From UHGV virus genome UHGV-0118441: a DNA stretch of 26,467 nt; one strand, given 5' to 3'. Made by a program: the position numbers and the translations under genes. This document shows, piece by piece, positions 4,639-16,928 of this stretch; the stretch's first letter is position 1, and each line of letters opens with the position of its first letter. Source of the DNA: a virus. A model generated the notes under the pieces. It was not told where the DNA came from and made no database searches. It worked only from the letters and a program-made list of their open reading frames with translations.

Positions 4639-5492
4639 GCACCATCCTGAAATGGGCGGGAAATAAAACTGCCATAATGTCCGAACTAAAAAAACATCTT
4701 CCTGCTGGCCCGCGACTGGTTGAACCTTTCGCGGGTTCCTGTGCTGTGATGATGGAGACGGATTATCCCAGCTATCTGGTTGCGGATATTAATCCTGATT
4801 TAATCAACCTCTATAAAAAGGTTGCCGCTGATTGTGAATCGTTTATATCTCGCGCCAGAGTTTTATTTGAGATCGCAAACAGGGAGGTGGCTTATTACAA
4901 CATAAGGCAGGAGTTTAATTACTCAACTGAAATTACTGATTTCATGAAAGCGGTATATTTCCTGTATCTCAATCGTCACGGTTACCGTGGTTTATGTCGC
5001 TATAACAAGAGCGGGCATTTCAACATTCCCTACGGTAATTATAAAAATCCGTATTTCCCTGAAAAAGAAATTCGCGCATTTGCAGAAAAGGCCCAGCGAG
5101 CAACGTTTATCTGCGCCAGCTTTGATGAAACGCTGGCGATGTTGAAGGCGGGGGATGTGGTGTATTGCGATCCGCCGTATGACGGTACGTTTTCCGGCTA
5201 TCACACTGACGGCTTCACTGAAGATGACCAGTATCACCTGGCATCTGTTCTTGAACATCGGTCATCAGAAGGACATCCGGTCATTGTTTCTAACAGTGAC
5301 ACATCCCTGATCCGTTCGCTGTATCGCAATTTTACTCACCACTACATCAAGGCAAAACGCAGCATCGGTGTGGCAGCTGGCGAGGGTAAATCAGCAACAG
5401 AAATCATTGCTGTTTCCGGGCCGCGCTGCTGGGTGGGATTTGATTATTCGCGTGGCGTGGATAGTTCTGCCGTGTACGGAGTACGTGCATGA
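4635..5492 (+). CDS. Dam-type (D12 class) N6-adenine DNA methyltransferase
   Basis: ORF 4575..5492; ATG at 4635 with a GGAGGTG RBS ([12 protein letters not shown]...). Cofactor-binding motif FAGSCAV and catalytic DPPY ([10 protein letters not shown]). Start and stop both overlap neighbours as ATGA. Confidence 0.85.
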
Positions 5493-7903
5493 GTCATGCC
5501 GATATGAACAACTGCTGCGGCTTTAACGAAGCTGCCGCATCGTTCTCATGGAACAGCTCGAAAAAGGCCATTAACCCTTATCTGGACCCGGTGGAAGTTG
5601 CGCCGGTTTCTACGCTTTCAAACCTGATCACTCTGTACGCTGCCGATAACGAGCAGGAACAGCTGCGCCGTGAGGCGCTGAGTGATCAGGTCTGGGAGCG
5701 TTATTTCTTTAATGAATCCCGTGATCCTGTCCAGCGCGAAATGGAACAGGATAAGCTCATTAGTCGGGCAAAGCTGGCGCATGAGCAGCAGCGTTTTAAT
5801 CCGGATATGGTCATTCTGGCGGACGTCAACGCCCAGCCTTCCCATATCAGCAAGCCGCTGATGCAACGTATTGAATACTTCAGCAGCCTGGGCAGGCCAA
5901 AGGCTTATTCCCGCTATTTACGTGAGACGATTAAGCCATGTCTGGAACGACTGGAGCATGTACGCGACAGTCAGCTATCTGCATCTTTTCGCTTTATGGC
6001 AAGCCATGAAGGGCTGGACGGCCTGCTGATCCTGCCTGAAATGAGTCAGGATCAGGTGAAACGCCTGTCCACCCTGGTAGCTGCGCATATGAGTATGTGC
6101 CTTGATGCCGCTTGTGGCGATTTGTATGCCACCGATGACGTTAAGCCAGAAGAAATCCGCAATACATGGGAAAGGGTGGCAGCGGAAACCCTGCGTCTGG
6201 ATGTCATCCCGCCTGCGTTTGAGCAACTCCGTCGGAAAAGAAACCGCCGTAAACCCGTGCCCTATGAACTCATTCCGGGTTCGCTGGCGCGTATGTTGTG
6301 CGCCGACTGGTGGTATCGGAAATTATGGAAGATGCGTTGCGAATGGCGGGAAGAGCAGTTGCGTGCTGTCTGCCTTGTCAGCAAAAAAGCATCTCCCTAT
6401 GTCAGCTATGAAGCCGTGTTGCATAAACGTGAGCAGCGCCGTAAGTCGCTGGAGTTTTTCCGTTCTCATGAACTGGTGAACGAAGACGGCGACACGCTAG
6501 ACATGGAGGATGTGGTAAACGCCAGCAGCAGCAACCCTGCGCATCGCCGCAATGAGATGATGGCCTGTGTTAAAGGTCTGGAGCTTATCGCGGAAATGCG
6601 CGGTGACTGCGCCGTTTTCTACACCATCACCTGTCCGTCACGTTTCCATTCCACGCTAAATAACGGCAGGCCCAACCCGACCTGGACAAATGCGACGGTA
6701 AGACAAAGCAGCGATTATCTGGTCGGTATGTTTGCTGCATTTCGTAAGGCGATGCACAAAGCCGGGTTGCGCTGGTATGGCGTGCGGGTGGCTGAGCCGC
6801 ATCACGACGGCACAGTTCACTGGCACCTGTTGTGTTTCATGCGCAAAAAAGACCGCCGCGCCATTACAGCATTGTTGCGTAAGTTTGCTATCCGTGAAGA
6901 CCGCGAGGAGCTGGGCAATAACACGGGGCCGCGCTTTAAGTCTGAGCTGATTAACCCGCGCAAAGGAACGCCGACAAGCTACATAGCGAAATACATCAGT
7001 AAGAACATTGACGGGCGTGGTCTGGCTGGCGAGATCAGCAAGGAAACGGGTAAATCTCTGCGTGATAACGCTGAATACGTGAATGCCTGGGCGTCTTTGC
7101 ATCGTGTTCAGCAATTCCGCTTCTTTGGCATTCCGGGGCGTCAGGCTTACCGTGAACTGCGATTGCTGGCTGGTCAGGCGGTAAGGCAAAAGGGGGACAA
7201 AAAAGCAGGTGCGCCGGTACTGGATAACCCGCGCCTTGATGCCATCCTGGCTGCTGCTGATGCTGGTTGTTTTGCCACCTACATCATGAAGCAGGGCGGC
7301 GTACTGGTTCCCCGTAAATATCACCTCATCAGAACCGCTTATGAAATCAACGAAGAGCCGACCGCCTATGGCGATCACGGCATTCGTATTTATGGCATCT
7401 GGTCACCCATTGCAGAGGGCAAGATCTGCACTCATGCAGTGAAGTGGAAAATGGTTCGTAAAGCCGTTGACGTTCAGGAGGCGGCAGCCGACCAGGGCGC
7501 TTGCGCCCCTTGGACTCGTGGCAATAACTGTCCCCTTGCTGAAAATTTGAACCAACAGGAGAAAGATAAATCAGCTGATGGAGACACCAGAACGGACATT
7601 ACCCGCATGGATGACAAGGAGTTGCACGATTACCTGCACAGTATGAGCAAAAAAGAGCGCCGGGAACTGGCAGCAAGGTTACGCCAGGTGAAGCCGAAAA
7701 GGCGTAAAGACTACAAACAGCGAATTACAGATCATCAGCATCAGCAGCTCGTCTATGAACTGAAGTCCAGAGGATTTGATGGCAGCGAGAAAGAGGTCGA
7801 TTTACTCCTTCGCGGTGGCAGTATTCCGTCAGGAGCAGGCCTGCGTATTTTCTATCGGAACCAGCGTTTGCAGGAAGATGATAAGTGGCGGAACCTGTAT
7901 TAA
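5489..7903 (+). CDS. A: Replication initiation protein A (P2 gpA-family rolling-circle endonuclease), 804 aa
   Basis: Size and position; HUH-like metal-binding motif (VHWHLLCF) and paired active-site tyrosines (YIAKYISK) as in P2/186 A proteins. Confidence 0.9.
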
Positions 7904-7995
7904 TTACGCAGGTTAACAATTCGTGCTCTTAATAATACCAGACATATCAGGCTGATGAACGTAAAAAAACGTTTTACATCAGTAAGATTATTATA

Positions 7996-8015
7996 TACTG
8001 TAAATATAAACAGTG
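7996..8015. promoter_or_regulatory. LexA (SOS) box TACTGTAAATATAAACAGTG
   Basis: Perfect CTGT-N8-ACAG with an AT-rich spacer, 42 bp upstream of the small ORF at 8057. A degenerate second copy may overlap at about 8013-8032. Confidence 0.6.
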
Positions 8016-8056
8016 GTTATGTATACAGTATTTCTTGTGGTGTTATAGGAGGAAAG

Positions 8057-8245
8057 ATGCAGGACTATTTTTTGGAGTCTTTGAAGCTCCAGCGCATTGA
8101 TTTTTTTCTTAAGCTTGTAGCGGCTAGTGAGTGTAGTGATGAAGAGAAAGGGCTGGCTCTGCAGTGGGTTTCTGAACTGACAGATGAACTCATGGCAAAA
8201 ATCAGAAGCCACGAATACAACCGCTCAATGGATGTCATCAGCTGA
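8057..8245 (+). CDS. Small SOS-controlled protein (62 aa); possible Tum-like antirepressor by position
   Basis: ORF 7955..8245; ATG at 8057 with an AGGAGG RBS, immediately downstream of the LexA box. No homology recognised; the antirepressor idea is by analogy with the 186 LexA-controlled tum operon. Confidence 0.45.
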   Translation: MQDYFLESLKLQRIDFFLKLVAASECSDEEKGLALQWVSELTDELMAKIRSHEYNRSMDVIS

Positions 8246-8255
8246 GGTGACTTTT

Positions 8256-8489
8256 ATGCGCATTGAAATAATGATCGATAAAGAGCAGAAGATTAGCCAG
8301 TCTACCCTGGACGCCCTTGAATCCGAGCTTTACCGCAATCTGCGCCCCCTGTATCCCAAAACGGTAATTCGCATTCGCAAAGGTAGCTCTAACGGTGTGG
8401 AACTAACCGGACTGCAACTGGATGAAGAAAGAAAACAAGTGATGAAAATTATGCAGAAGGTGTGGGAGGACGACAGCTGGCTGCATTAA
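8256..8489 (+). CDS. dinI: DinI-family protein (77 aa)
   Basis: ORF 8184..8489; ATG at 8256 with a GAGGTG RBS. MRIEIMIDKEQ...VMKIMQKVWEDDSWLH matches the DinI N-terminal MRIEV motif and acidic W-rich C-terminal helix. Confidence 0.8.
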   Translation: MRIEIMIDKEQKISQSTLDALESELYRNLRPLYPKTVIRIRKGSSNGVELTGLQLDEERKQVMKIMQKVWEDDSWLH

Positions 8490-8895
8490 GAAACATTGCC
8501 CCCAGGAGGATTCATTCTGATGGGGGCTAGTTTGGGTAGCGAGTGAAACGAGGCGTAAGGTGGGCGGCCATTTTGATAAGTGATTGTACGATTTGTGTTG
8601 TGAGTTCAACGGGTCGATGCAACGCTATCCTTAATCAAGGGGACGTTGCTCATACCCATCGATGCAATGAAAATCCATACTCATGGGGAAGACCAGAATG
8701 TCCCTGCCTTTTTCATTTTGTTCAGCACATGCACTATGGCCATTTCCTTCCCAAGCTAGCTATCGTAATCACTCAGCGTCAGTAAACTACTGAAAAATTG
8801 TTTTACCTTGTATATCAATAATGCCAAATCATACCCAAAAAATCGAAAATAATTAGATCGACAGGCAGAAGGCAATGTGAATAATCTTAAAAACC

Positions 8896-8925
8896 TTGAC
8901 TGCCAGTGAGGTTTGGTTCTATAAA
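8896..8925 (+). promoter_or_regulatory. Candidate sigma70 promoter for darTG (TTGACT-18 bp-TATAAA)
   Basis: Hexamers read directly, about 30 bp upstream of the darT ATG. Confidence 0.45.
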
Positions 8926-8956
8926 TAGACTTACGAATTTGAAAGGATGAGTTGAA

Positions 8957-9538
8957 ATGAGCGAAAGGAAAAGAATTGAAGATCAGTATCTTCTCTATCA
9001 TTTAACATGTATGGATAATCTACCTAGTATTTTAGATACAGGATTAAGATCTCGTGCATCAGTAAAAGGTGAGTTTGTTGATGTGGCCGACGGTGAAATA
9101 ATAACAGGTCGCGAAGCATTAAATTTGCAAACAATGGTTCCTTTTCATTTCTTTACTAAGAATCCATTTGATGGAAGAGTCCTGAAAGATCATAAGGAAA
9201 AATCATTTTGTATTATTTCGGTTTGTCGGGCATTTGCCAAAGAAAATGGTTGGAAAGTTATCCCTAAACATCCATTATCCACCAGTTCTTTTATAGACCT
9301 CTTAGATTATGAACAAGGAATGGCCCAAATTGACTGGGAGCTAATGAATATAAGGGATTATAAAAATGCAGAATGCAAATCTGTATGTATGGCTGAGTGT
9401 TTATCAAGTGTAACGGTCGAGCCGAAAAATTTCCATTGCATCTTTGTCAAAAATGATAACGAAAAAAAATATGTTGAAGGGTTGATAAAACAACAAGGAT
9501 TAAGTATATTGATAACGATCAACACTTATATGTTCTAA
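8957..9538 (+). CDS. darT: DarT (DUF4433) ssDNA ADP-ribosyltransferase toxin, 193 aa
   Basis: N-terminal LYHLTCMDNLPSIL, central VPFHFF and C-terminal DWELMNIRDY...MAECL segments match the DarT family as I recall it (Thermus DarT IYHITHIDNL..IL, PFYF, QAEFLV with catalytic Glu). Followed 4 nt later by a macrodomain gene. Confidence 0.75.
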   Translation: MSERKRIEDQYLLYHLTCMDNLPSILDTGLRSRASVKGEFVDVADGEIITGREALNLQTMVPFHFFTKNPFDGRVLKDHKEKSFCIISVCRAFAKENGWKVIPKHPLSTSSFIDLLDYEQGMAQIDWELMNIRDYKNAECKSVCMAECLSSVTVEPKNFHCIFVKNDNEKKYVEGLIKQQGLSILITINTYMF

Positions 9539-9542
9539 TTCT

Positions 9543-10514
9543 ATGATTAAGTATGCAAGCGGAAATCTTCTAAACTCTACATCGCAAGCTCTTGTGAATG
9601 CTGTAAACTGCCAAGGAGTCATGGGAAAGGGTATTGCTTTGGCTTTTAAAGAAACTTTTCCCTATAATTTCGAAGTTTATAAGAGAGCATGCGCCACTGG
9701 TACAATGAAAATTGGACAGGTTTTAATTGTAGAGGAAAAGGGAAAAATAATTGTAAACTTTCCCACTAAAGATAGTTGGAGAAAAAAATCAACATATGAT
9801 TTTATCTCGCAAGGCCTTGAATCTTTAGCAAAAATTATAGATGAAAAAAAAATTACATCAATATCAATACCACCTTTAGGCTGTGGTAATGGGGGCCTCG
9901 ATTGGAATAAGGTTGAGGCTCTTATTTTAAAAACTTTTCAAAATTTAGATAATGTTGATGTGGTAATTTATCCGCCTGCAACTAACAATCAACTTTCAAA
10001 AAATAAAAATGTTATTAATGCTAAGCATCTTTTGGTTCACTACGCCTATGGAAAATTAAAAGTTAAGCAAAAATATTCCCTTTATACAGTTTTTTATATT
10101 TGCGAATGTATTGAGAAAGCAAATCTTTTTTTATTCGATTTTAAACATGGTCGGCCATACTCTTCTGAGTTAGAAAATATTATGAAGGATATAGCAAACC
10201 TTAAAGTTGAGTTGCAAGGAGATTTTGATGCTTTTATTGAAGATTATATTAATACTCATCAATCCAAAGAGTTACAAACCGAGTTTGGTAAACTAATCTC
10301 AACTTTAAATCCAAGTATAAGTTTGCTCAATGCTCTTAAAAATAAGATTGATTATACAGATAGCGTACATGTGATCACGAGAATTGCTAAAGAAAAAGAT
10401 CATGGCTTGCATATTGACAATTTCAAAGAATATGAAAATATTGTGCAGCATTTAATTAAAAATGGATTGGTAATCGAAGATATTTTTAACGAACTAAAAA
10501 TAAAGGGAAGTTAG
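9543..10514 (+). CDS. darG: DarG antitoxin, N-terminal TARG1-like macrodomain (ADP-ribosyl hydrolase), 323 aa
   Basis: N-terminus GNLL...ALVNAVNCQGVMGKGIALAF and later PPLGCGNGGLDW are hallmark macrodomain motifs of DarG/TARG1. Translationally coupled to darT. Confidence 0.8.
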   Translation: MIKYASGNLLNSTSQALVNAVNCQGVMGKGIALAFKETFPYNFEVYKRACATGTMKIGQVLIVEEKGKIIVNFPTKDSWRKKSTYDFISQGLESLAKIIDEKKITSISIPPLGCGNGGLDWNKVEALILKTFQNLDNVDVVIYPPATNNQLSKNKNVINAKHLLVHYAYGKLKVKQKYSLYTVFYICECIEKANLFLFDFKHGRPYSSELENIMKDIANLKVELQGDFDAFIEDYINTHQSKELQTEFGKLISTLNPSISLLNALKNKIDYTDSVHVITRIAKEKDHGLHIDNFKEYENIVQHLIKNGLVIEDIFNELKIKGS

Positions 10515-11066
10515 TAGCGCTATTTTCAATTTTTTTGCTGAAATTGCGCATGCACACTCTCACGCATTATAGATGCGGCGTTAATCCCGCCAGGAGTGTT
10601 GTTTAATAAATTGAACTATTTCTGCATTGAAGGATCAACTTACGCATTCGCTGACAACGCAGGCACTCTCCTGGCTAAGCAGAAATTCAGAGTAACCAAC
10701 TGGCACTTTTACAACAATTTTCTTATCAGTTGCGGCTCCATGACTTTCTGGTGGGATAACAAAGCAATTAAGGCGTGGTATTGTAAGTATCCCGCATAAT
10801 CATGCTAGTAACATTTGTCCCCCATGTAACCTAATTAAGGCAACTTCCGCTCTTCGCTCACAGTGAACCTCCATGTTTGTAAACCCGTATATTTCGTTTT
10901 TTAAGTGGTCATTCAGATACGGATTTTCACTTCTCTTGGCTGTGCATGACTATGCTGCATGAAATTGCATGATCGTTTGAGGATCGTTTTTGCTGAGGCC
11001 CCCCAGAACTGGCGGGCTTTCGCTTATGTCATGCAGGTGCATGAAAATCACTGCATAAAGCGGGCA

Positions 11067-11085
11067 GGCGTGGCGGGGATACGAG
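11067..11085. other. Candidate cos cohesive-end sequence (GGCGTGGCGGGGATACGAG), P2/186-type
   Basis: First 13 nt match my recollection of the P2/186 19-nt cohesive end (GGCG[A/T]GGCGGGGAAAGCA[C/T]), followed by CGCGCGCT as at the P2 left end. Position between gene A and portal Q fits P2 synteny. From memory, not a database match. Confidence 0.55.
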
Positions 11086-11164
11086 CGCGCGCTAACTAAA
11101 AAGCTAGAGAATCTGTGAATTTTTCAATAGTATTATTCTTAGTTAACTAAAGGAGAATCTTATC

Positions 11165-12229
11165 ATGGCAGAAAACGGACCTCGTGAAGACTTGGCGAAG
11201 CTGGTGTCCCATAAACTATTGGAAAGATTTAAGTGGAAGCAACACGGTCCGACCGATCATGATTTTCCGTGTACTGAACAAGAATTACACAAGCCAGCGG
11301 AAAAAACGCAAGACCACACACATCCAGTTGATATTGTCTTTCATTATAAAGATCCTTACTTAAATAAAATTGTTTATCTAAATACTGATTTGAAAAGTTA
11401 TTCAAAAGGGTCTTTAAATTCTAAAATGGTTGAAAATGCTTTAGATTCCTTAGCAAAAACTATTCATTGTGCGCAGAATAGTCAGGTATGGAAAAATCGC
11501 TATGAGACAACCATGTCTAAAAGTGAAGTACGAGGGTTACTTTTTGTATATAATCATGATAATGACTATAAGCATAATTTCTATGACTATTTTTATCCTC
11601 CTAAACCCAAAAAAGGGAAAAGACCTGCGGCAGTTAATTTAGACAGAGTAAATGTATCTGAAAATCAGCAAATACATATAATTGAGCCACGAACTATTAG
11701 TTATCTTATGTCTGTTGTTGCTGATATGAACGAAATGATTGCGGAAAATAAATTCCCGCGTGATGATTATGGGTTCTATTATCCTCAATTAATACTTCAT
11801 AAGGTTGTGACTGCAGAAGAATATCTTCCAGCTACAGTGGAAACTCTAACATCCCCCTACATGATAATTAAACATGGTCCAGTAATAGAATATAATAGAG
11901 CTAAAAAGGAGGACGAGCTGGTTTATCCTGAAGGGTTTATTGTTTATTACAACCGCTCCGGTAAAACAGACTTAGAGTTTAATTATTTATTAGATACTCT
12001 AGCTAACTACCAGATATTAAACTCAAAAAATAATATTAGAATTAGAGTAGCATGTATTGATAAAAGTGAGCACATACGGACTAATTTTATAAAAGCTATA
12101 GAAAAATTTTCATATCAGTGGGGATATGATGAATCTATGAAGGAAAAATTATTATCTATTGAGCTATATATTGTGCCTCTATCTCGAGAGCAATATTTAA
12201 CAGAAGAAAGATCATGGGATGTTAAATAA
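11165..12229 (+). CDS. Unknown protein, 354 aa, first gene of AT-rich cargo operon; possible PD-(D/E)xK-like nuclease motif
   Basis: ATG with an AAGGAGA RBS 8 nt upstream; AT-rich codon usage. HPVD-IVFH ... KIVYLNTDLK is compatible with a PD-x(n)-D-x-K signature. No other motif recognised. Confidence 0.6.
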   Translation: MAENGPREDLAKLVSHKLLERFKWKQHGPTDHDFPCTEQELHKPAEKTQDHTHPVDIVFHYKDPYLNKIVYLNTDLKSYSKGSLNSKMVENALDSLAKTIHCAQNSQVWKNRYETTMSKSEVRGLLFVYNHDNDYKHNFYDYFYPPKPKKGKRPAAVNLDRVNVSENQQIHIIEPRTISYLMSVVADMNEMIAENKFPRDDYGFYYPQLILHKVVTAEEYLPATVETLTSPYMIIKHGPVIEYNRAKKEDELVYPEGFIVYYNRSGKTDLEFNYLLDTLANYQILNSKNNIRIRVACIDKSEHIRTNFIKAIEKFSYQWGYDESMKEKLLSIELYIVPLSREQYLTEERSWDVK

Positions 12230-13305
12230 TGAGTGAAATACACAGTGTTACAGACAAAGCTTTATACGAGGCTTTATGCCAATCACGTGTCACTGATAAT
12301 GATATGGTGGAATTGTTTTTATCCCGTGGAATTTTGGTGTCAAAAAAAACTGAGCGTAAGCAACTAGCAAAAAATTTCTCAAAGCTCACTCATGATTATT
12401 ATTTGCATCAGAAAATTTCTGGAATATTTGGAGGTTTTTTAAGGCGAGAGAAATCTACGGCTATAGTTATTAAGAATAATATTGATAAGCCACTACTTGT
12501 TAAGGCTGCTAATAAGCTTAAAGATCAGCTGGAAAGCGAAGATGATATATGTCATGTAATCAGTGATAAAGATTCTATTAAAATTAGCATTACATACTTA
12601 TCAACCAATTTTGGTAAAAGTGAATTTAACCAAGTAGAGAAGAAAACTGCTGTTTTTGAAATCGAGTCCCTTTCGGATGGTTTTTCAATTCGTAGGCCTG
12701 ATAGTGAACAAGCTGAGATTTATAATAAAAAACTACTAAGTATTATCGAACAGGTTATACAAAAGGAAAAAGATATAGAAGCAACGACTTTAGATACAGA
12801 AGAAATCAACCTCGCGAACATCGATGACGCAGATAAAAGAACAGAATTTTTTAAGCGGCTCATCAATGGGTTGGATGGATATGTTTTAGATGATGTTACG
12901 GATGTTTATATCTACCATCCTAAACCTGCTGTCATGGAGGAGGAAGATGGGGATTCTGAAACAGGAATACATATTAGCAAAGCATCTTTGAAAGGAGAGG
13001 GGGTGCTTAAATCTGAAGAGTTGAATTCTTTGTATGATAGAGGGTTTTATATTTGGAAAATAAGATGGAGAATAAAGGATAAATCTACTACTCCAGATCT
13101 TTATGATTTTGAAGCTCAGTTTAGTGATCCTTTAGAGTTTAAGAGCTTTTCATATATTTCTAGAGGGGTGAGGAAATATAAAGGTGCCGGAGAATATAAT
13201 AAAAATCCGAGCCAATTACCGGATGATGAAGAATATCATTTTAAAAGACTTATTGAAAAAACGGCGCGTTCAATTATAATGGATATTAATAAAGAGTATG
13301 AGTGA
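12229..13305 (+). CDS. Unknown protein, 358 aa, second gene of cargo operon
   Basis: ATG overlaps the stop of the previous gene (TAATG). Highly charged, Lys/Glu/Asp-rich; no Walker A, HEPN, HTH or other motif recognised. Confidence 0.6.
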   Translation: MSEIHSVTDKALYEALCQSRVTDNDMVELFLSRGILVSKKTERKQLAKNFSKLTHDYYLHQKISGIFGGFLRREKSTAIVIKNNIDKPLLVKAANKLKDQLESEDDICHVISDKDSIKISITYLSTNFGKSEFNQVEKKTAVFEIESLSDGFSIRRPDSEQAEIYNKKLLSIIEQVIQKEKDIEATTLDTEEINLANIDDADKRTEFFKRLINGLDGYVLDDVTDVYIYHPKPAVMEEEDGDSETGIHISKASLKGEGVLKSEELNSLYDRGFYIWKIRWRIKDKSTTPDLYDFEAQFSDPLEFKSFSYISRGVRKYKGAGEYNKNPSQLPDDEEYHFKRLIEKTARSIIMDINKEYE

Positions 13306-13313
13306 GATAACAA

Positions 13314-14018
13314 ATGAAAACACTGGATAAAATTAAGTGGAGCAGAGTGAAGTTATCAATAACCTTCTCTGAACTAATTGATTATTTTAAACGTAATTCT
13401 TATGATGAAAGTAAAGGTTATGGTTATACTTTTGTGAATTTTACTGAACATGAAGTTTCCGCTTCTTATGTTGAAAAGTCATTGCGTACAGAAGTTATTG
13501 TATCGCCCGCGGGAGATGAGATAGAACAAGATTTTTTAGAGTATGAAACCATAAAATTTGCATTAAAGCCCGTATCTAAAAATCTCTCTTTATTGGCTAT
13601 TTTTAATCCCCCTAAATCTATAAAGAAATTGACGGATAGACTTAGTGTAGATTTCAATTATAGGGTTGGATTTGGTTCAATTACCTTAAATTTAAAGGAG
13701 TATATAAATTATCTAAGTTTACAGCATTCAATAAGTCTATTACATATTGATAAAATTAAAGTTAGCAATGTTGTGTTAAATGGGAACTCCAAGGCCTCGG
13801 TTGAGATAACTTCCACAAAAAATGCATTGTTAGAGCTAGAAAGTATTTTTACTAACAAAAAATATAATATAGATAAAGTTAGGTTGCATTGTTTGATTTA
13901 CGGGGAACCTTCTTTTGTTGAGCTTTCAAAAAGCGCTTTTATTAATTCAGATTCTAATCATCTGGATTTTTACTCCGACTTCCTCATTCAGCAATTATCT
14001 AATGATGAATTTCGTTAA
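13314..14018 (+). CDS. Unknown protein, 234 aa, third gene of cargo operon
   Basis: ATG 8 nt after the previous stop; same strand and AT-rich composition. No recognisable motif. Confidence 0.55.
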   Translation: MKTLDKIKWSRVKLSITFSELIDYFKRNSYDESKGYGYTFVNFTEHEVSASYVEKSLRTEVIVSPAGDEIEQDFLEYETIKFALKPVSKNLSLLAIFNPPKSIKKLTDRLSVDFNYRVGFGSITLNLKEYINYLSLQHSISLLHIDKIKVSNVVLNGNSKASVEITSTKNALLELESIFTNKKYNIDKVRLHCLIYGEPSFVELSKSAFINSDSNHLDFYSDFLIQQLSNDEFR

Positions 14019-14124: not shown

Positions 14125-15162
14125 TTAAGTTGCCTTTTCAAGCTTGTAAGGGATAAAACGTATAATCTCGTGGCCGAGCCAGCAGTTAAGCTCCATTATT
14201 AGCTTCTGTAGTGGCAATAATTCATTCCTTACAAATACATTACTTGCCTTCTCCACATCCCCAAACCCCCCAACATTATTCGGCATAATCCCCATCATTT
14301 GTGGCGGCACACGATGTGCCGCCATCATGTCATCCCGGCTCACGTTCTTGATGTTCAGAAATTCATCCTTTGCCGCGACTTCTGACAACGGGATAATCTG
14401 AAGACCATCCTTTTTGCCGTTAGGTGAGTACATAAACAGGTTGCGGAAGTTGCCTGGACCTTTGGCGCTTTTCATTGCGTTGCGGAGGTTGTTCACATCC
14501 TCCTGGTTCTGCGCAGCATCGGTCATGTACATGATGAAGCCAGCATGACTGCCGTTAATGTAATACTTTCGGCGGAACAGCGTGGCGGACTCATTGAGCA
14601 GGGCGGACGGAATGGCAGAAAGATAGCCGGGCAGGCCGTAGATCTCCTGGTTAATGTCCGGTTCCATCAGATGAAAAATGCTGCCTTTCGTGAACTGATA
14701 CGGCTGGGTTGTCATACCGTATTGCACAAACCAGTAGGTATCCAGGTCTAACCCGCGTCGGGTGTATTTTGCCAGAGCAGGCTCAAGGGCGATAACTTCA
14801 CCGAAGCGGTTCGTGCGTTTCTCCAGGTAGGCGTTACCAAATACCAGATAGTCCTGCACAAAACGTGAAAAAGCCTGCTGGCTGAGCAGCGGGTGGGGGA
14901 TGTAGGTACTGGTCAGAATGTTGCATTTCACCGCAATTGGTGAACTGTGATGCACGGCGGCGCGGAAGGTGCGCGCCAGTCCGTCAAAGCTTACTGGCGG
15001 CTCATACCAGCGATCTGTCTGTACGCATTCCACATAGTCCAGTAGTTCGCGGCGGTCCAGAACAGGAACGGGATCACCGAAGCTGAATGCTTCGGCTGTA
15101 GTTTGACTTTTATGCTGGATCTGGTTCGTCGACGCAGCGCGGTTCTTCTTACTCTTTCCCAT
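14125..15162 (-). CDS. Q: Portal protein (P2 gpQ family)
   Basis: ORF 14125..15165; about 345 aa from the ATG at 15162. Size, synteny (downstream of and overlapping the large terminase gene as ATGA) and orientation relative to cos match P2 Q. Confidence 0.85.
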   Translation of the reverse strand: MGKSKKNRAASTNQIQHKSQTTAEAFSFGDPVPVLDRRELLDYVECVQTDRWYEPPVSFDGLARTFRAAVHHSSPIAVKCNILTSTYIPHPLLSQQAFSRFVQDYLVFGNAYLEKRTNRFGEVIALEPALAKYTRRGLDLDTYWFVQYGMTTQPYQFTKGSIFHLMEPDINQEIYGLPGYLSAIPSALLNESATLFRRKYYINGSHAGFIMYMTDAAQNQEDVNNLRNAMKSAKGPGNFRNLFMYSPNGKKDGLQIIPLSEVAAKDEFLNIKNVSRDDMMAAHRVPPQMMGIMPNNVGGFGDVEKASNVFVRNELLPLQKLIMELNCWLGHEIIRFIPYKLEKAT

Positions 15163-16928
15163 CAAAAAATCTCCACAATATTACTGGTATTGGCGGACTC
15201 GCCCTGCAGTGGTTCGTTAAACAGTGCGTGCATTGTTGCCCAGGCCAGATCGGCGTGGCTGGCTTCTTCGCTGCGGCTGGCTTCATAGGTCGGGCGGTTG
15301 CCACTGGCGGTGGTTGCGCGACGGATTGCCATGAATGACTGCGCAATGTCGGTGTGCCCGGCGTCAAACTCCAGACGGCGGTGGCTGATAATGTCGTAGG
15401 CCTTGAGTACCAGGGCGTTTTTAACATTGGGGTTATAGACAAACTCCCGGACGGCTGGAAAGAACGCTTTCACGTTCTCGTAAACCCCGTGACCGACGCC
15501 GGTCGAGTCAATACCGATGTACGTCACGTTGTACTGTTCGGTCAGTTTTTTGATGGCATCAGCCTGGGCGCGGAAGTCCATCCCGCGCCACTGGTGACGT
15601 TCAAGAATGCGGAACTTGCCGCCCGGTACGGCTGGCGGTGCCACCACCACGCATCCGGCGCTGTCGCCGTTCTGCGTACCTTTTGCCGGGTCATAACCAA
15701 TCCATACTTCGCGCCAGCCAAACGGGCGCAGCGCCAGTGCATGGAAGTCGGTCCAGACTTCCCAGCTGTCCACCATGCACGCCTGCAGCTCGCTGAGCGG
15801 GAACACGGACGCGAGATCGTCCACGAACTCACACATCAGCAGGTTCTGGTATTCGTCCGGGCTGTACTCCATGCGCAACTGGTCGAGGTCGAACAGGTTA
15901 CAGCCGCCGTGCACCGCATCTTCCACGGTGACTATCTGGCGGTATTGCCCGTCTGCGCACAGCAGGCCGGGGGCCAGATTGTTATGGGACAGGTCGATGT
16001 CCACCTTGTCGGCTTTGTTGCGCCCACGGTTGAACAGCGCACCGGACCAGAACGGATAAGCACTGTGGGTCAGGCTGGATGGCGTGGAAAAATAAGTTTG
16101 TCGCCATTTTTTGTGAATAGCCATACCGGAAGCCACTTTGCGCAGCTCCTGAAATTTCGGTATCCAGAAATATTCATCCAGATACAGGTTGCCGTGATAA
16201 CTCTGGGCCGTGCGGGCATTGGTGCCGAGGAAGTAAAGTGTGGCCCCGTTAGGAAGCACCATCGGATCGCCTTTCAGCTCCACCTCCACTTCTTTGGCGA
16301 AGTCGATGATGTACTGCTTAAAGACGTGAGCCTGTGCCTTACTGGCAGAAAGGAAAATCTGGTTACGTCCGGTAAGCAGGGCGTCAATCAGGGCTTCACG
16401 GGCAAAGTAAAAGGTCGCACCGATCTGGCGTGACTTCAGCAGGTTGCGGATGCGGTTGGTTTTTCCGGCTTCCCACCAGTGGCGCTGGTAGTTGAACATG
16501 GAGGAATGGAAGATTTCTTCCAGCTTCTCAATCTGTTCATCGGTGAAAACGTTCTTTTCCGGCTGACGACGCGGGCCTTTGTTGCGGTTGGCGACGTTAG
16601 GGTTTAAGTCGGCTTCGTTGCCGCCATTGTTAAACTTGCCGATCCGCGCGTGGCGCTCCGACTGGCGCGCCAGCAGATCAATTTCTTTGAAATCTTTCCC
16701 TTCTTTGTGCTCCTTCATAATGAGCTGGCAGTAACGTGCGGCGGTGGTGAGCTGCATCTGATCCAGCGGCCCGTAGTCACCCCACTTGTCGCGTTTTTTC
16801 CAGCTGTGAACGGTTGCAACTTTCTCGCCCAGCATTTCAGCAATGCGGGCGACGCGGTATCCCTGAAAGTACAGCAGCATGGCCTGCCGACGGGGATCGA
16901 GATCTGCGGGTGTCAGTGTGGTGTTCAT
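15162..16928 (-). CDS. P: Terminase large (ATPase) subunit (P2 gpP family), 588 aa
   Basis: Size and divergent arrangement from the capsid operon as in P2 P/O. The antisense 359-aa ORF on the plus strand is treated as spurious. Confidence 0.85.
   Translation of the reverse strand: MNTTLTPADLDPRRQAMLLYFQGYRVARIAEMLGEKVATVHSWKKRDKWGDYGPLDQMQLTTAARYCQLIMKEHKEGKDFKEIDLLARQSERHARIGKFNNGGNEADLNPNVANRNKGPRRQPEKNVFTDEQIEKLEEIFHSSMFNYQRHWWEAGKTNRIRNLLKSRQIGATFYFAREALIDALLTGRNQIFLSASKAQAHVFKQYIIDFAKEVEVELKGDPMVLPNGATLYFLGTNARTAQSYHGNLYLDEYFWIPKFQELRKVASGMAIHKKWRQTYFSTPSSLTHSAYPFWSGALFNRGRNKADKVDIDLSHNNLAPGLLCADGQYRQIVTVEDAVHGGCNLFDLDQLRMEYSPDEYQNLLMCEFVDDLASVFPLSELQACMVDSWEVWTDFHALALRPFGWREVWIGYDPAKGTQNGDSAGCVVVAPPAVPGGKFRILERHQWRGMDFRAQADAIKKLTEQYNVTYIGIDSTGVGHGVYENVKAFFPAVREFVYNPNVKNALVLKAYDIISHRRLEFDAGHTDIAQSFMAIRRATTASGNRPTYEASRSEEASHADLAWATMHALFNEPLQGESANTSNIVEIF

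Follow-up and report, generated by a model that had tools for sequence, protein, structure and literature searches.

A probable DarTG2-type toxin-antitoxin and anti-phage module adjoining cos in a 186/P2-like prophage

The window analyzed here, a 26,467 nucleotide stretch of the virus genome UHGV-0118441, very probably carries a functional DarTG2-type toxin-antitoxin and anti-phage module. The module is accessory cargo of a 186/P2-like E. coli prophage and lies between the SOS operon and cos. It is a clean example of the exchangeable anti-phage modules that P2/186-like prophages carry adjoining cos. DarTG2 as a system type, the hotspot and the presence of the protein at this locus are already known from public annotation and a published supplementary table, and RefSeq already annotates the cassette as DarT/macro. 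Our additions are modest: exact cassette borders, a hotspot divided by cos, a phylogenetically supported promoter, and two apparent substitutions in the DarT active site.

The first gene of the pair, darT (8957-9538, + strand), encodes a DarT-family ADP-ribosyltransferase of 193 aa, predicted to be a DNA-directed toxin. The first-pass annotation described it as a DUF4433-like protein with the N-terminal and catalytic motifs of DarT, and suggested HMM searches for both proteins of the pair. These were run, and both family profiles match strongly, far beyond chance. DarT matches Pfam PF14487 (DUF4433) with an e-value of 5e-22 and 79.1 bits (gathering score 22.5) over profile positions 1-199 of 201, and the PADLOC DarT profile with an e-value of 1.7e-36 and 123.9 bits over positions 5-195 of 196. 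The fold agrees. An AF2 model of the protein (pLDDT 92.1) was compared with the PDB using Foldseek, and the top eight matches are all solved DarT chains; the next match has a TMq of 0.39. Thermus DarT is closest (TMq 0.76-0.83), followed by those of M. tuberculosis (0.75-0.78), Thermosipho (0.70) and E. coli DarT1 (0.70). The protein scores 53.3 bits against the NCBIfam equivalog NF048013 (toxin_DarT), below the cutoff of 150, and its PGAP name therefore stays 'DarT ... family protein'. F112V is the sole difference from the DarT of strain S40 (WP_016239482). In our literature search, WP_016239482/3 were absent from the papers searched, and experiments on this homologue were not found.

The residues expected of a DarT active site (predicted as H15, T17, N21, R52 and E147) are in place. 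Y14-H15-L16-T17...N21 is invariant among 30 homologues, and this N-terminal segment pairs with YHIT...N in the alignments to 7OMV, 7OMU and 8BAQ, so that the NAD+-binding motif (H13, T15 and N19 in Thermus) is present. R52 and E147 are likewise invariant in the 30 homologues; together with H15 they align with Thermus H13 (H15), R51 (R52) and E160 (E147). In Thermus DarT, E160 is the catalytic Glu and R51 is the NAD+-polarising and proton-abstracting Arg (PMC9967889). The first-pass annotation left the catalytic Glu as either E147 or E139. The second of these candidates falls away, as E139 is not invariant among the 30 homologues aligned. E147, within MAECL, aligns with the Ala of a MAACL segment in the Thermosipho 7OMU construct, which is presumably an engineered mutation of the catalytic Glu. 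The alignments place the predicted catalytic Glu at E147, not E139.

Two other positions depart from Thermus DarT, as placed by profile alignment to Thermus and Thermosipho DarT, that is, by sequence alignment only. H64 would lie opposite the nicotinamide-stacking Y71 of Thermus, and F71 opposite the oxocarbenium-stabilising M78. Both residues are invariant across the subfamily (30 homologues). Given these substitutions, the base and motif specificity of DarT is not secured by homology. They appear to define an apparently uncharacterised DarT subfamily of about 190 aa, which is widespread in Enterobacterales, Pseudomonas, Vibrio and others and could merit a specificity test. H105 is also invariant in the homologues and is a candidate for the thymine-locking H119 of Thermus, with the HMM alignment to Thermus ending at residue 70.

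The second gene, darG (9543-10514, + strand), encodes the DarG antitoxin. The protein is 323 aa long, with an N-terminal ADP-ribosyl-glycohydrolase macrodomain of the DarG/TARG1 type at about 1-148 (predicted catalytic K76) and a helical C-terminal domain at about 150-323. A macrodomain N-terminus had been read from the motifs VNAVNCQGVMGKGIALAF and GCGNGGLDW. Both are present, and the protein matches Pfam Macro (e-value 6e-19, above the gathering threshold), PADLOC DarG (e-value 2.8e-80, positions 1 to 305-313 of 329) and the M. tuberculosis DarG macrodomain structure 5M3I (e-value 2.6e-43), as well as 5M31 (e-value 3.2e-37). In a Foldseek comparison, the AF2 model superimposes on the M. tuberculosis DarG macrodomain with a TMt of 0.93 and an rmsd of 0.8 Å at about 50% identity. 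K76, within NFPTK, aligns with the Lys of NFPTKKHWR, which is the catalytic K80 of the DarG macrodomain in Thermus/M. tuberculosis numbering (PMC11543638); of 30 homologues, at least 90% have this Lys. The C-terminal helical domain is modeled confidently; a solved homologue of it was found neither in the PDB by sequence nor among the top 50 Foldseek matches. DarG falls narrowly below the cutoff of the NCBIfam equivalog NF048014 (antitoxin_DarG; 230.4 bits vs. 250), and matches that profile over positions 1-255 of 338. As both DarT and DarG are below their equivalog cutoffs, NCBI would not name them exact functional equivalents. In strain LR-46, a 297-aa DarG annotation gives the appearance of an N-terminally truncated antitoxin. 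The DNA has an intact N-terminus there, and the short form is a different start call.

DarTG2 systems are defined by a macrodomain rather than a NADAR antitoxin (PMC11543638), and the macrodomain of the window antitoxin places the pair, by sequence, in the DarTG2 type. Its closest known counterparts are the DarTG2 systems, which include those of Thermus aquaticus/Thermus sp. 2.9, M. tuberculosis, EPEC, E. coli (LeRoux et al., 2022) and P. aeruginosa 505/CW41. The window pair shares with this type a two-gene darT-darG operon, the DarT fold (TM 0.78-0.83), and the H-x-T...N, Arg (R52) and Glu (E147) residues. Its DarG macrodomain is 42-50% identical to those of Thermus and M. tuberculosis, with a like catalytic Lys and C-terminal extension. 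For DarT, identity to the solved Thermus and M. tuberculosis proteins is just 16-19%, phmmer misses Thermus DarT, and the protein is 193 aa long where DarTG2 systems have about 210-220 aa. Divergence of 20-26% is normal among functional DarTG2 systems (PMC13309987). By sequence, the closest solved DarT is that of the Thermosipho africanus DarT-macrodomain fusion, 7OMU (e-value 1.1e-12, residues 13-182), which is 22% identical to the window DarT. Unlike the window pair it is a single fused polypeptide, and where the window DarT has H64 and F71 it keeps Tyr and Met. The guanosine-specific DarTG1 of E. coli C7 (DarT1 and NADAR) has the same DarT fold (TM 0.70) and a similar N-terminal NAD-binding motif, and is also an anti-phage toxin-antitoxin; its antitoxin is a NADAR protein, whereas that of the window is a macrodomain, and the structural match of the window DarT is weaker to DarT1 than to DarT2. 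According to the summaries of LeRoux (2022) in PMC11543638 and PMC11825919, both DarTG1 and DarTG2 defend against phages.

In a lysogen, darT and darG would be co-transcribed from their own conserved sigma-70-type promoter, described below, and are probably translationally coupled. The DarG macrodomain, with its predicted catalytic K76, would strip ADP-ribose from DNA while the C-terminal domain would bind DarT. The DarG proteins of M. tuberculosis, Thermus and V. cholerae are established to neutralise in these two ways. On infection by a competing phage, DarT would be released and would use NAD+ to ADP-ribosylate bases in single-stranded phage DNA. Since the macrodomain of the cognate antitoxin is so close to those of DarG, thymidine is the most likely target. 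DarTG antitoxins are base-specific (PMC11825919), and a macrodomain of this type thus argues for thymidine over guanosine. Phage replication would be blocked with no progeny produced, and the lysogen population, and so the prophage, would be protected.

The two genes are arranged as a compact operon. As the first-pass annotation had it, the macrodomain gene follows darT after 4 nt (9539-9542). Of the related loci compared, from Ewingella, Morganella and serine-recombinase prophages, all but one keep this order with a gap of 4-5 nt; in the exception, darG is called about 80 nt later. The pair was also credited with a near-consensus promoter of its own. We found a candidate at 8896-8925 (+ strand), consisting of a -35 TTGACT (8896-8901), an 18-nt spacer and a -10 TATAAA (8920-8925). 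Six homologous loci, the most distant with 62% DarT identity, have exactly these hexamers at this spacing, whereas the flanks diverge. A generic promoter scan did not list this site because the -10 hexamer is without the final T. Promoter-like sites are no commoner in the region than in shuffles (22 found vs. 24.8 expected). The scan's best candidate upstream of darT, TCGACA-16-AATAAT at 8858-8885, is not conserved in the Ewingella locus; it was rejected for that reason and TTGACT/TATAAA preferred. A Shine-Dalgarno AGGA (8944-8947, + strand) lies 9 nt upstream of the darT ATG, and an AAAGGA/ACAGG motif is kept in five of the six aligned loci.

The pair is carried on a cassette with defined borders. 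When the window is aligned by BLASTN to the 23CRST009 prophage, homology stops at 8499 and restarts at 10942. The cassette (8500-10941) therefore places 2,442 bp where an otherwise near-identical prophage has 68 bp. It had been noted that the pair is AT-rich relative to the backbone, and the composition bears this out: GC is 0.28-0.42 in the 500-bp windows that cover the cassette, and 0.28-0.35 over 9001-10500, whereas the backbone of structural genes has 0.51-0.63. There are IS scars near both edges. Many E. coli genomes have annotated transposase genes that are 86% identical to a short transposase-gene remnant near the left edge (8577-8653). Near the right edge is an IS5/IS1182 transposase fragment (10671-10778, + strand), with a PGAP pseudogene at the equivalent place in four cassette-carrying E. 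coli genomes. Within the cassette is a portable core (8703-10781, + strand), made up of the promoter, darT, darG and about 270 bp of 3′ flank. The core is shared with an Ewingella americana chromosomal island at 89% DNA identity over 2,081 bp. The island is not a prophage: no phage genes are nearby, and an Mrr_cat gene adjoins the darTG pair. The cassette is a self-contained unit of 2.1-2.4 kb that moves among P2-like prophages, other prophages and chromosomal islands. It is present in 10 of 5,426 complete E. coli genomes. No close DarT homologue was found in the isolated phage genomes of INPHARED, where the single match is at 38% identity, and thus all phage-borne evidence comes from prophages.

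Upstream of the cassette is the SOS operon of the prophage backbone. A LexA-controlled DinI operon had been placed there, and we found both parts of it. A p95-like promoter region (7973-8015, + strand) lies outside the cassette and carries a LexA box, TACTGTAAATATAAACAGTG (7996-8015), that overlaps a TATACT -10 element (7994-7999). The box contains the sole zero-mismatch CTGT-N8-ACAG in the window, and the layout of the region matches the annotated p95/LexA site of phage 186. The first gene of the operon (8057-8245, + strand) encodes a 62-aa conserved hypothetical protein, which has a PGAP CDS at the equivalent place in S40; of 66 P2/186-like phage records with a match, 58 have it at 85-100% identity. 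The second (8256-8489, + strand) encodes a DinI-like (Tum C-terminal-like) protein (Pfam DinI, e-value 1.2e-22). Homologues of the latter at about 42% identity are annotated as 'SOS operon TUM protein', and the phage 186 record annotates a truncated Tum as DinI-like. The counterpart of the hyp-DinI operon in phage 186 is the p95-tum SOS operon. Just past the DinI stop codon is a GC-rich hairpin, GCCCCCA...TGGGGGC (8498-8527, + strand), which sits where phage 186 has the partial terminator t95a. It folds with an MFE of -19.3 kcal/mol (8485-8545), but it is without a good U-tract and was not called by the terminator scan.

This layout allows for a different reading, in which transcripts from the p95-like promoter read through the hairpin into darTG, and lesions made by DarT would induce SOS, fire the Tum-like operon and let the prophage escape. 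The perfect LexA box over the -10 element (7994-8015) and the missing U-tract of the hairpin speak for such wiring, and in phage 186 the p95 transcript does pass t95a into orf97, a cargo gene in the same slot. DarT of EPEC reportedly causes lesions that induce SOS. We nonetheless regard this wiring as unlikely. The hyp-DinI operon is found in 1,629 E. coli genomes and precedes hundreds of unrelated cargoes; DarTG is the cargo in 10, and the rest (about 1,620) have others. The arrangement is therefore not selected for DarTG. In addition, darTG has a conserved promoter of its own that accompanies it even in non-phage contexts lacking an upstream LexA box, and an IS-scarred spacer of about 400 bp separates the SOS operon from darTG. 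The first-pass annotation considered the juxtaposition with DinI of interest for DarTG, and here we differ from it: the juxtaposition follows from where the slot lies, whatever cargo fills it. A further variant, in which the His64/Phe71 subfamily would have a target base or motif other than the TNTC-thymidine of characterised DarT2 enzymes and read-through from the LexA-controlled Tum-like operon would boost its expression into a loop of damage, SOS and induction that ends in prophage escape from an infected, doomed cell, is similarly doubtful.

The functional DarTG2-type module as anti-phage cargo is also what the position of the cassette suggests. It had been assigned to the slot between A and cos, and the borders at 8500 and 10941 and a cos at 11067-11085 agree with this. 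The conserved cos region (10942-11093) includes a predicted 19-nt cohesive end, GGCGTGGCGGGGATACGAG, at 11067-11085. We placed cos by homology to the cohesive end of phage 186: positions 11028-11092 of the window align across the joined right and left ends of that phage, and 13 of the 19 bases of the predicted cohesive end are identical. A P2 cohesive-end sequence (GGCGAGGCGGGGAAAGCAC, up to three mismatches) gave no match. About 1,250 E. coli genomes have the cos segment, as do 82 phage records. We considered the 'linker' at 10942-11093 as a regulatory element or small RNA and rejected it, as it is the cos region. Rfam gave nothing at gathering score in the whole window, and at E<=1 over 8400-11200 gave only a chance miRNA match (10495-10571).

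The two genes that bound the hotspot are gpA (5489-7903) and portal gene Q (14125-15165, - strand), with 99% and 93% identity, respectively, to the annotated S40 prophage. The DarTG cassette is variable cargo that lies between them and adjoins cos, in the gpA-gpQ interval published as the defence hotspot of P2 (PMC9122126; PMC13586616). cos splits the hotspot into an A-to-cos slot, filled by DarTG, and a cos-to-Q slot, filled by a second defence system, 3HP, for which PADLOC models match the three genes present. The cassette combines freely with varied cargo in the neighboring slot: across E. coli, its cos-to-Q partners are of at least four kinds. The gpA-to-cos cargoes of P2 (tin/old) and 186 (orf97) occupy the same slot, after gpA and the SOS operon and before cos. 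Like them, the DarTG cassette is AT-rich, swappable and defence-related. Table S5A of Rousset et al. (2022) lists P2 loci of the form 'DarT + ... + Macro + DinI', including the DarT accession WP_016239482. DarTG goes unmentioned in the main text of that paper and is not among the systems it tested. Here, cos is resolved as dividing two independently filled sub-slots.

The pair could instead serve mainly for addiction, i.e., post-segregational killing. If the prophage were lost, labile DarG would decay and DarT would kill the cured cell; any defence would then be a secondary role. Other species do have DarTG as a bona fide toxin-antitoxin pair (PMC11543638), and a cassette that has IS scars near both edges and turns up in unrelated contexts behaves like selfish mobile cargo. 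We think addiction as the main role decidedly improbable, as the slot is a documented defence hotspot, the neighboring cargo matches 3HP defence models, and both DarTG subfamilies tested defend against phages. Cargo in the hotspot is also swapped very rapidly (PMC13586616), which disfavors an effective addiction. The addiction and defence roles are not mutually exclusive.

It is barely credible that IS activity brought the pair in and that it has since decayed and lost its function: IS fragments near both edges, rarity in E. coli and scores below the NCBIfam equivalog cutoffs would fit decay, but both ORFs are full length with intact and invariant catalytic residues, and the promoter and RBS are conserved. 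A functional DarTG2-type module is consistent with the substitution pattern as well. Both darT and darG are under purifying selection, with dN/dS against relatives of 0.10-0.31 for darT and 0.13-0.19 for darG. Among the five E. coli copies (the window and four genomes), the others are 1-6 substitutions from the window, with no frameshifts.

The first-pass annotation described a DarT-DarG module in the A-to-cos cargo slot, and this was confirmed by profile matches and by a predicted cos site at 11067-11085. A DarT-like ORF of 193 aa (darT, 8957-9538, plus strand, ATG start) is followed 4 nt later by a macrodomain ORF of 323 aa (darG, 9543-10514, plus strand, ATG start), as had been read from the sequence, and the macrodomain motifs then cited are found in the second protein. 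Searches against DarT and macrodomain profiles matched both families. DarT matches Pfam PF14487 over nearly its full length (E = 5e-22; 79 bits, gathering score 22.5) and the PADLOC DarT model (E = 1.7e-36). DarG matches Pfam Macro (E = 6e-19) and, across almost its entire length, the PADLOC DarG model (E = 2.8e-80). Among solved structures, it matches the DarG macrodomain of M. tuberculosis best (5M3I, E = 2.6e-43), followed by that of Thermus aquaticus (5M31, E = 3.2e-37). Both genes are AT-rich relative to the backbone, with a GC content of 0.28-0.35 against 0.51-0.63 in the structural genes.

Because the antitoxin is a macrodomain rather than a NADAR protein, the pair is a DarTG2, the thymidine-modifying class (PMC11543638). 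For DarG, the model (pLDDT 87) fits onto its M. tuberculosis counterpart with an rmsd of 0.8 A and 50% identity, and K76, in the NFPTK motif, corresponds to the catalytic K80 in the alignment. The only strong matches to the DarT model (pLDDT 92) are DarT structures; it is closest to Thermus DarT (TM 0.80-0.83), compared with a TM of 0.70 to the guanosine-specific DarT1. Residues Y14, H15, T17, N21, R52, H64, F71, H105 and E147 are invariant across 30 DarT homologues, and H15 and R52 align with Thermus H13 and R51. Either E147 or E139 had been proposed as the catalytic Glu. E147 (MAECL) is the predicted catalytic residue, since it is invariant and lies opposite the Ala of MAACL in the Thermosipho africanus fusion structure 7OMU, presumably an engineered Glu mutation; E139 varies. 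In the profile alignment, H64 lies opposite Thermus Y71 and F71 opposite Thermus M78, positions that are Tyr and Met in Thermosipho too; in Thermus, Y71 stacks on the nicotinamide and M78 stabilizes the oxocarbenium (PMC9967889). Scores for the NCBIfam equivalogs fall below the cutoff (DarT 53 vs. 150; DarG 230 vs. 250). Together, these substitutions and sub-threshold scores mark a divergent subfamily of apparently uncharacterized specificity. Antitoxins are specific for the base modified by their own toxin (PMC11825919) and the DarG here is very close to thymidine-ADPr hydrolases, so thymidine is the best prediction for the target base.

The darT/darG operon is an intact two-gene unit under selection, with a conserved promoter. 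dN/dS values against relatives are 0.10-0.31 for darT and 0.13-0.19 for darG, and four other E. coli copies carry 1-6 substitutions relative to the window and no frameshifts. The first-pass annotation had assigned the pair its own near-consensus promoter. An upstream alignment of six loci supports this assignment: TTGACT, the 18-nt spacing and TATAAA do not vary, even in the locus where protein identity is down to 62% and the flanks are otherwise unalignable. Such a phylogenetic footprint outweighs a bare consensus match as evidence for a darTG promoter. The site was missed by a generic promoter scan, in which promoter-like sequences around it were not enriched relative to shuffled sequences. 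The module is also mobile between settings. A 2,081-bp unit (window 8703-10781) is found at 89% identity in an Ewingella americana chromosomal island without phage genes, and related pairs occur on a Morganella chromosome and in serine-recombinase prophages near a terminase gene. In nearly all related loci the macrodomain gene lies 4-5 nt 3′ of darT, the exception being contig L006, in which darG was called ~80 nt later. The pairs on the metagenome and genome contigs L006-L011 are 62-79% identical to those of the window and are in unrelated serine-recombinase prophages, with darT at 6001-6582 and the large terminase gene (GpA_ATPase) a few kb away. The placement of cargo next to packaging genes is therefore seen in more than one phage type.

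The window is a 186/P2-like prophage adjoining the host gene rcdA (ORF 20-586, named by positional equivalence to the annotated E. coli S40 locus). Since the window begins in rcdA, the left attachment site must fall at about 587-690, immediately to the left of the minus-strand integrase gene (691-1821). A dip in GC to 0.35 at 2001-2500 spans the interval that separates the integrase from the CI repressor gene, where S40 has a gene for a 63-aa hypothetical protein; a minor defense hotspot has been reported in the integrase-CI part of P2-like phages (PMC13586616). Window 7001-11093 is 99% identical to the annotated S40 prophage, in which the gene order is integrase, CI, CII, Fil, Dam methylase, replication endonuclease gpA (window 5489-7903 by this comparison), a 62-aa hypothetical, DinI-like protein, "DarT ... 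family protein," "macro domain-containing protein," an IS5 fragment, three hypotheticals, portal and terminase. The cassette borders are fixed by the DarTG-free prophage of strain 23CRST009, in which homology to the window ends at 8499 and restarts at 10942; 2,442 bp in the window stand in place of 68 bp. Near the left edge is an unnamed 77-bp transposase remnant (8577-8653), and near the right edge is an IS5/IS1182 fragment (10671-10778). The latter is also beside the Ewingella copy, where homology extends to 10781, and thus the right-hand remnant travels with the darTG unit, leaving 10782-10941 unassigned.

The 150-bp segment at 10942-11093 is conserved in ~1,250 E. coli genomes and 82 phage records from at least four genera. 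When the right and left ends of the phage 186 record are joined, window 11028-11092 aligns over the junction, and GGCGTGGCGGGGATACGAG (11067-11085) is the counterpart of the 186 cohesive end GGCGTGGCGGGGAAAGCAT, from which the predicted end differs in the last six bases. On this alignment the segment is the predicted cos region. It forms a conserved island flanked by two AT-rich cargo blocks, and several TGCATGA/TGCAT repeats upstream of the cut site are possibly terminase-binding elements. The gpA-gpQ interval is a published P2 hotspot (PMC9122126; PMC13586616), and because the cos site falls within it, the hotspot here consists of two slots. The A-to-cos slot contains DarTG in the window and orf97 in phage 186. 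In P2, this slot is occupied by tin/old. Several Salmonella and Klebsiella P2-like phages, e.g., RE2010 (NC_019488) and Klebsiella phage ST11-OXA245phi3.1, have their DinI gene ~845 bp away from the cos-region segment, compared with ~70-80 bp in "empty" phages, and therefore other small cargo fills their A-to-cos slot. The cos-to-Q slot (11165-14018) holds three plus-strand ORFs matching the PADLOC models Hp1 (11165-12229, E = 3e-62), Hp2 (12229-13305, E = 1.5e-40) and Hp3 (13314-14018, E = 3e-14). In our reading, they are the three-gene system, lacking recognizable domains, that was shown to protect against P1 (Rousset et al., 2022, PMC9122126). An Hp1 homolog is annotated by PGAP as a PD-(D/E)XK nuclease domain protein, and the Hp1-like protein weakly resembles GapS4a, below threshold (NCBIfam, E = 1.7e-10). 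The two slots are filled independently of each other. Three further cos-to-Q cargoes accompany the same cassette in other E. coli genomes: three different hypotheticals, an AAA ATPase, or a hypothetical together with a STAS-like protein.

The darTG pair is in a defense hotspot, beside a second defense system. From what is known of the family, DarG would counter DarT via de-ADP-ribosylation and binding. Infection by a heterologous phage would release DarT, which would ADP-ribosylate the ssDNA of the replicating phage, and the aborted infection would shield the lysogen population. The DarTG finding is correct and tidy, yet this is a known system at a known place. RefSeq names for both proteins already exist and PADLOC models detect both. 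P2 hotspots swap defense cargo rapidly, and near-identical systems are found in other mobile elements and cryptic chromosomal sites (PMC13586616). P2 loci listed as "hypothetical + DarT + ... + Macro + DinI" include WP_016239482 (Rousset et al., 2022, Table S5A; PMC9122126). This is the S40 DarT, and its sole difference from that of the window is F112V. Residue 112 is Phe in the window and Val in the four other E. coli copies (T vs. G at 9290), and is variable in the subfamily alignment. Our literature search found no paper discussing or testing DarTG at the P2-like A-to-cos locus.

Upstream of the cassette, the LexA-controlled DinI operon of the first-pass annotation is well supported by the sequence and by analogy with the phage 186 SOS operon. 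The sole perfect CTGT-N8-ACAG within the window, TACTGTAAATATAAACAGTG (7996-8015), overlaps a TATACT -10 element and precedes a 62-aa ORF and then the DinI-like gene. The annotated p95 operon of 186 is laid out in the same way: a LexA site overlaps the -10 of promoter p95 and is followed by tum, the C-terminal part of which is annotated as DinI-like. The 186 Tum is one 146-aa protein, whereas the window has separate 62-aa and 77-aa (DinI-like) ORFs, and 7973-8527 has the appearance of a split p95-tum operon. More distant homologs of the DinI-like protein carry the annotation "SOS operon TUM protein," and the analogy suggests that the prophage is SOS-inducible as 186 is. The adjacency of DinI and DarTG, which had been singled out as interesting, is present, but it comes from the position of the slot next to an operon that is prophage backbone: the operon was found in 1,629 of 5,426 complete E. 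coli genomes, with DarTG behind it in 10 of the 1,629. In 186, tum is followed by the partial terminator t95a, orf97, terminator t95b and cos. A hairpin at 8498-8527, which lacks a U-tract and was not listed in a terminator scan, sits where 186 has t95a, and SOS transcripts may read through it into the cargo, as in 186.
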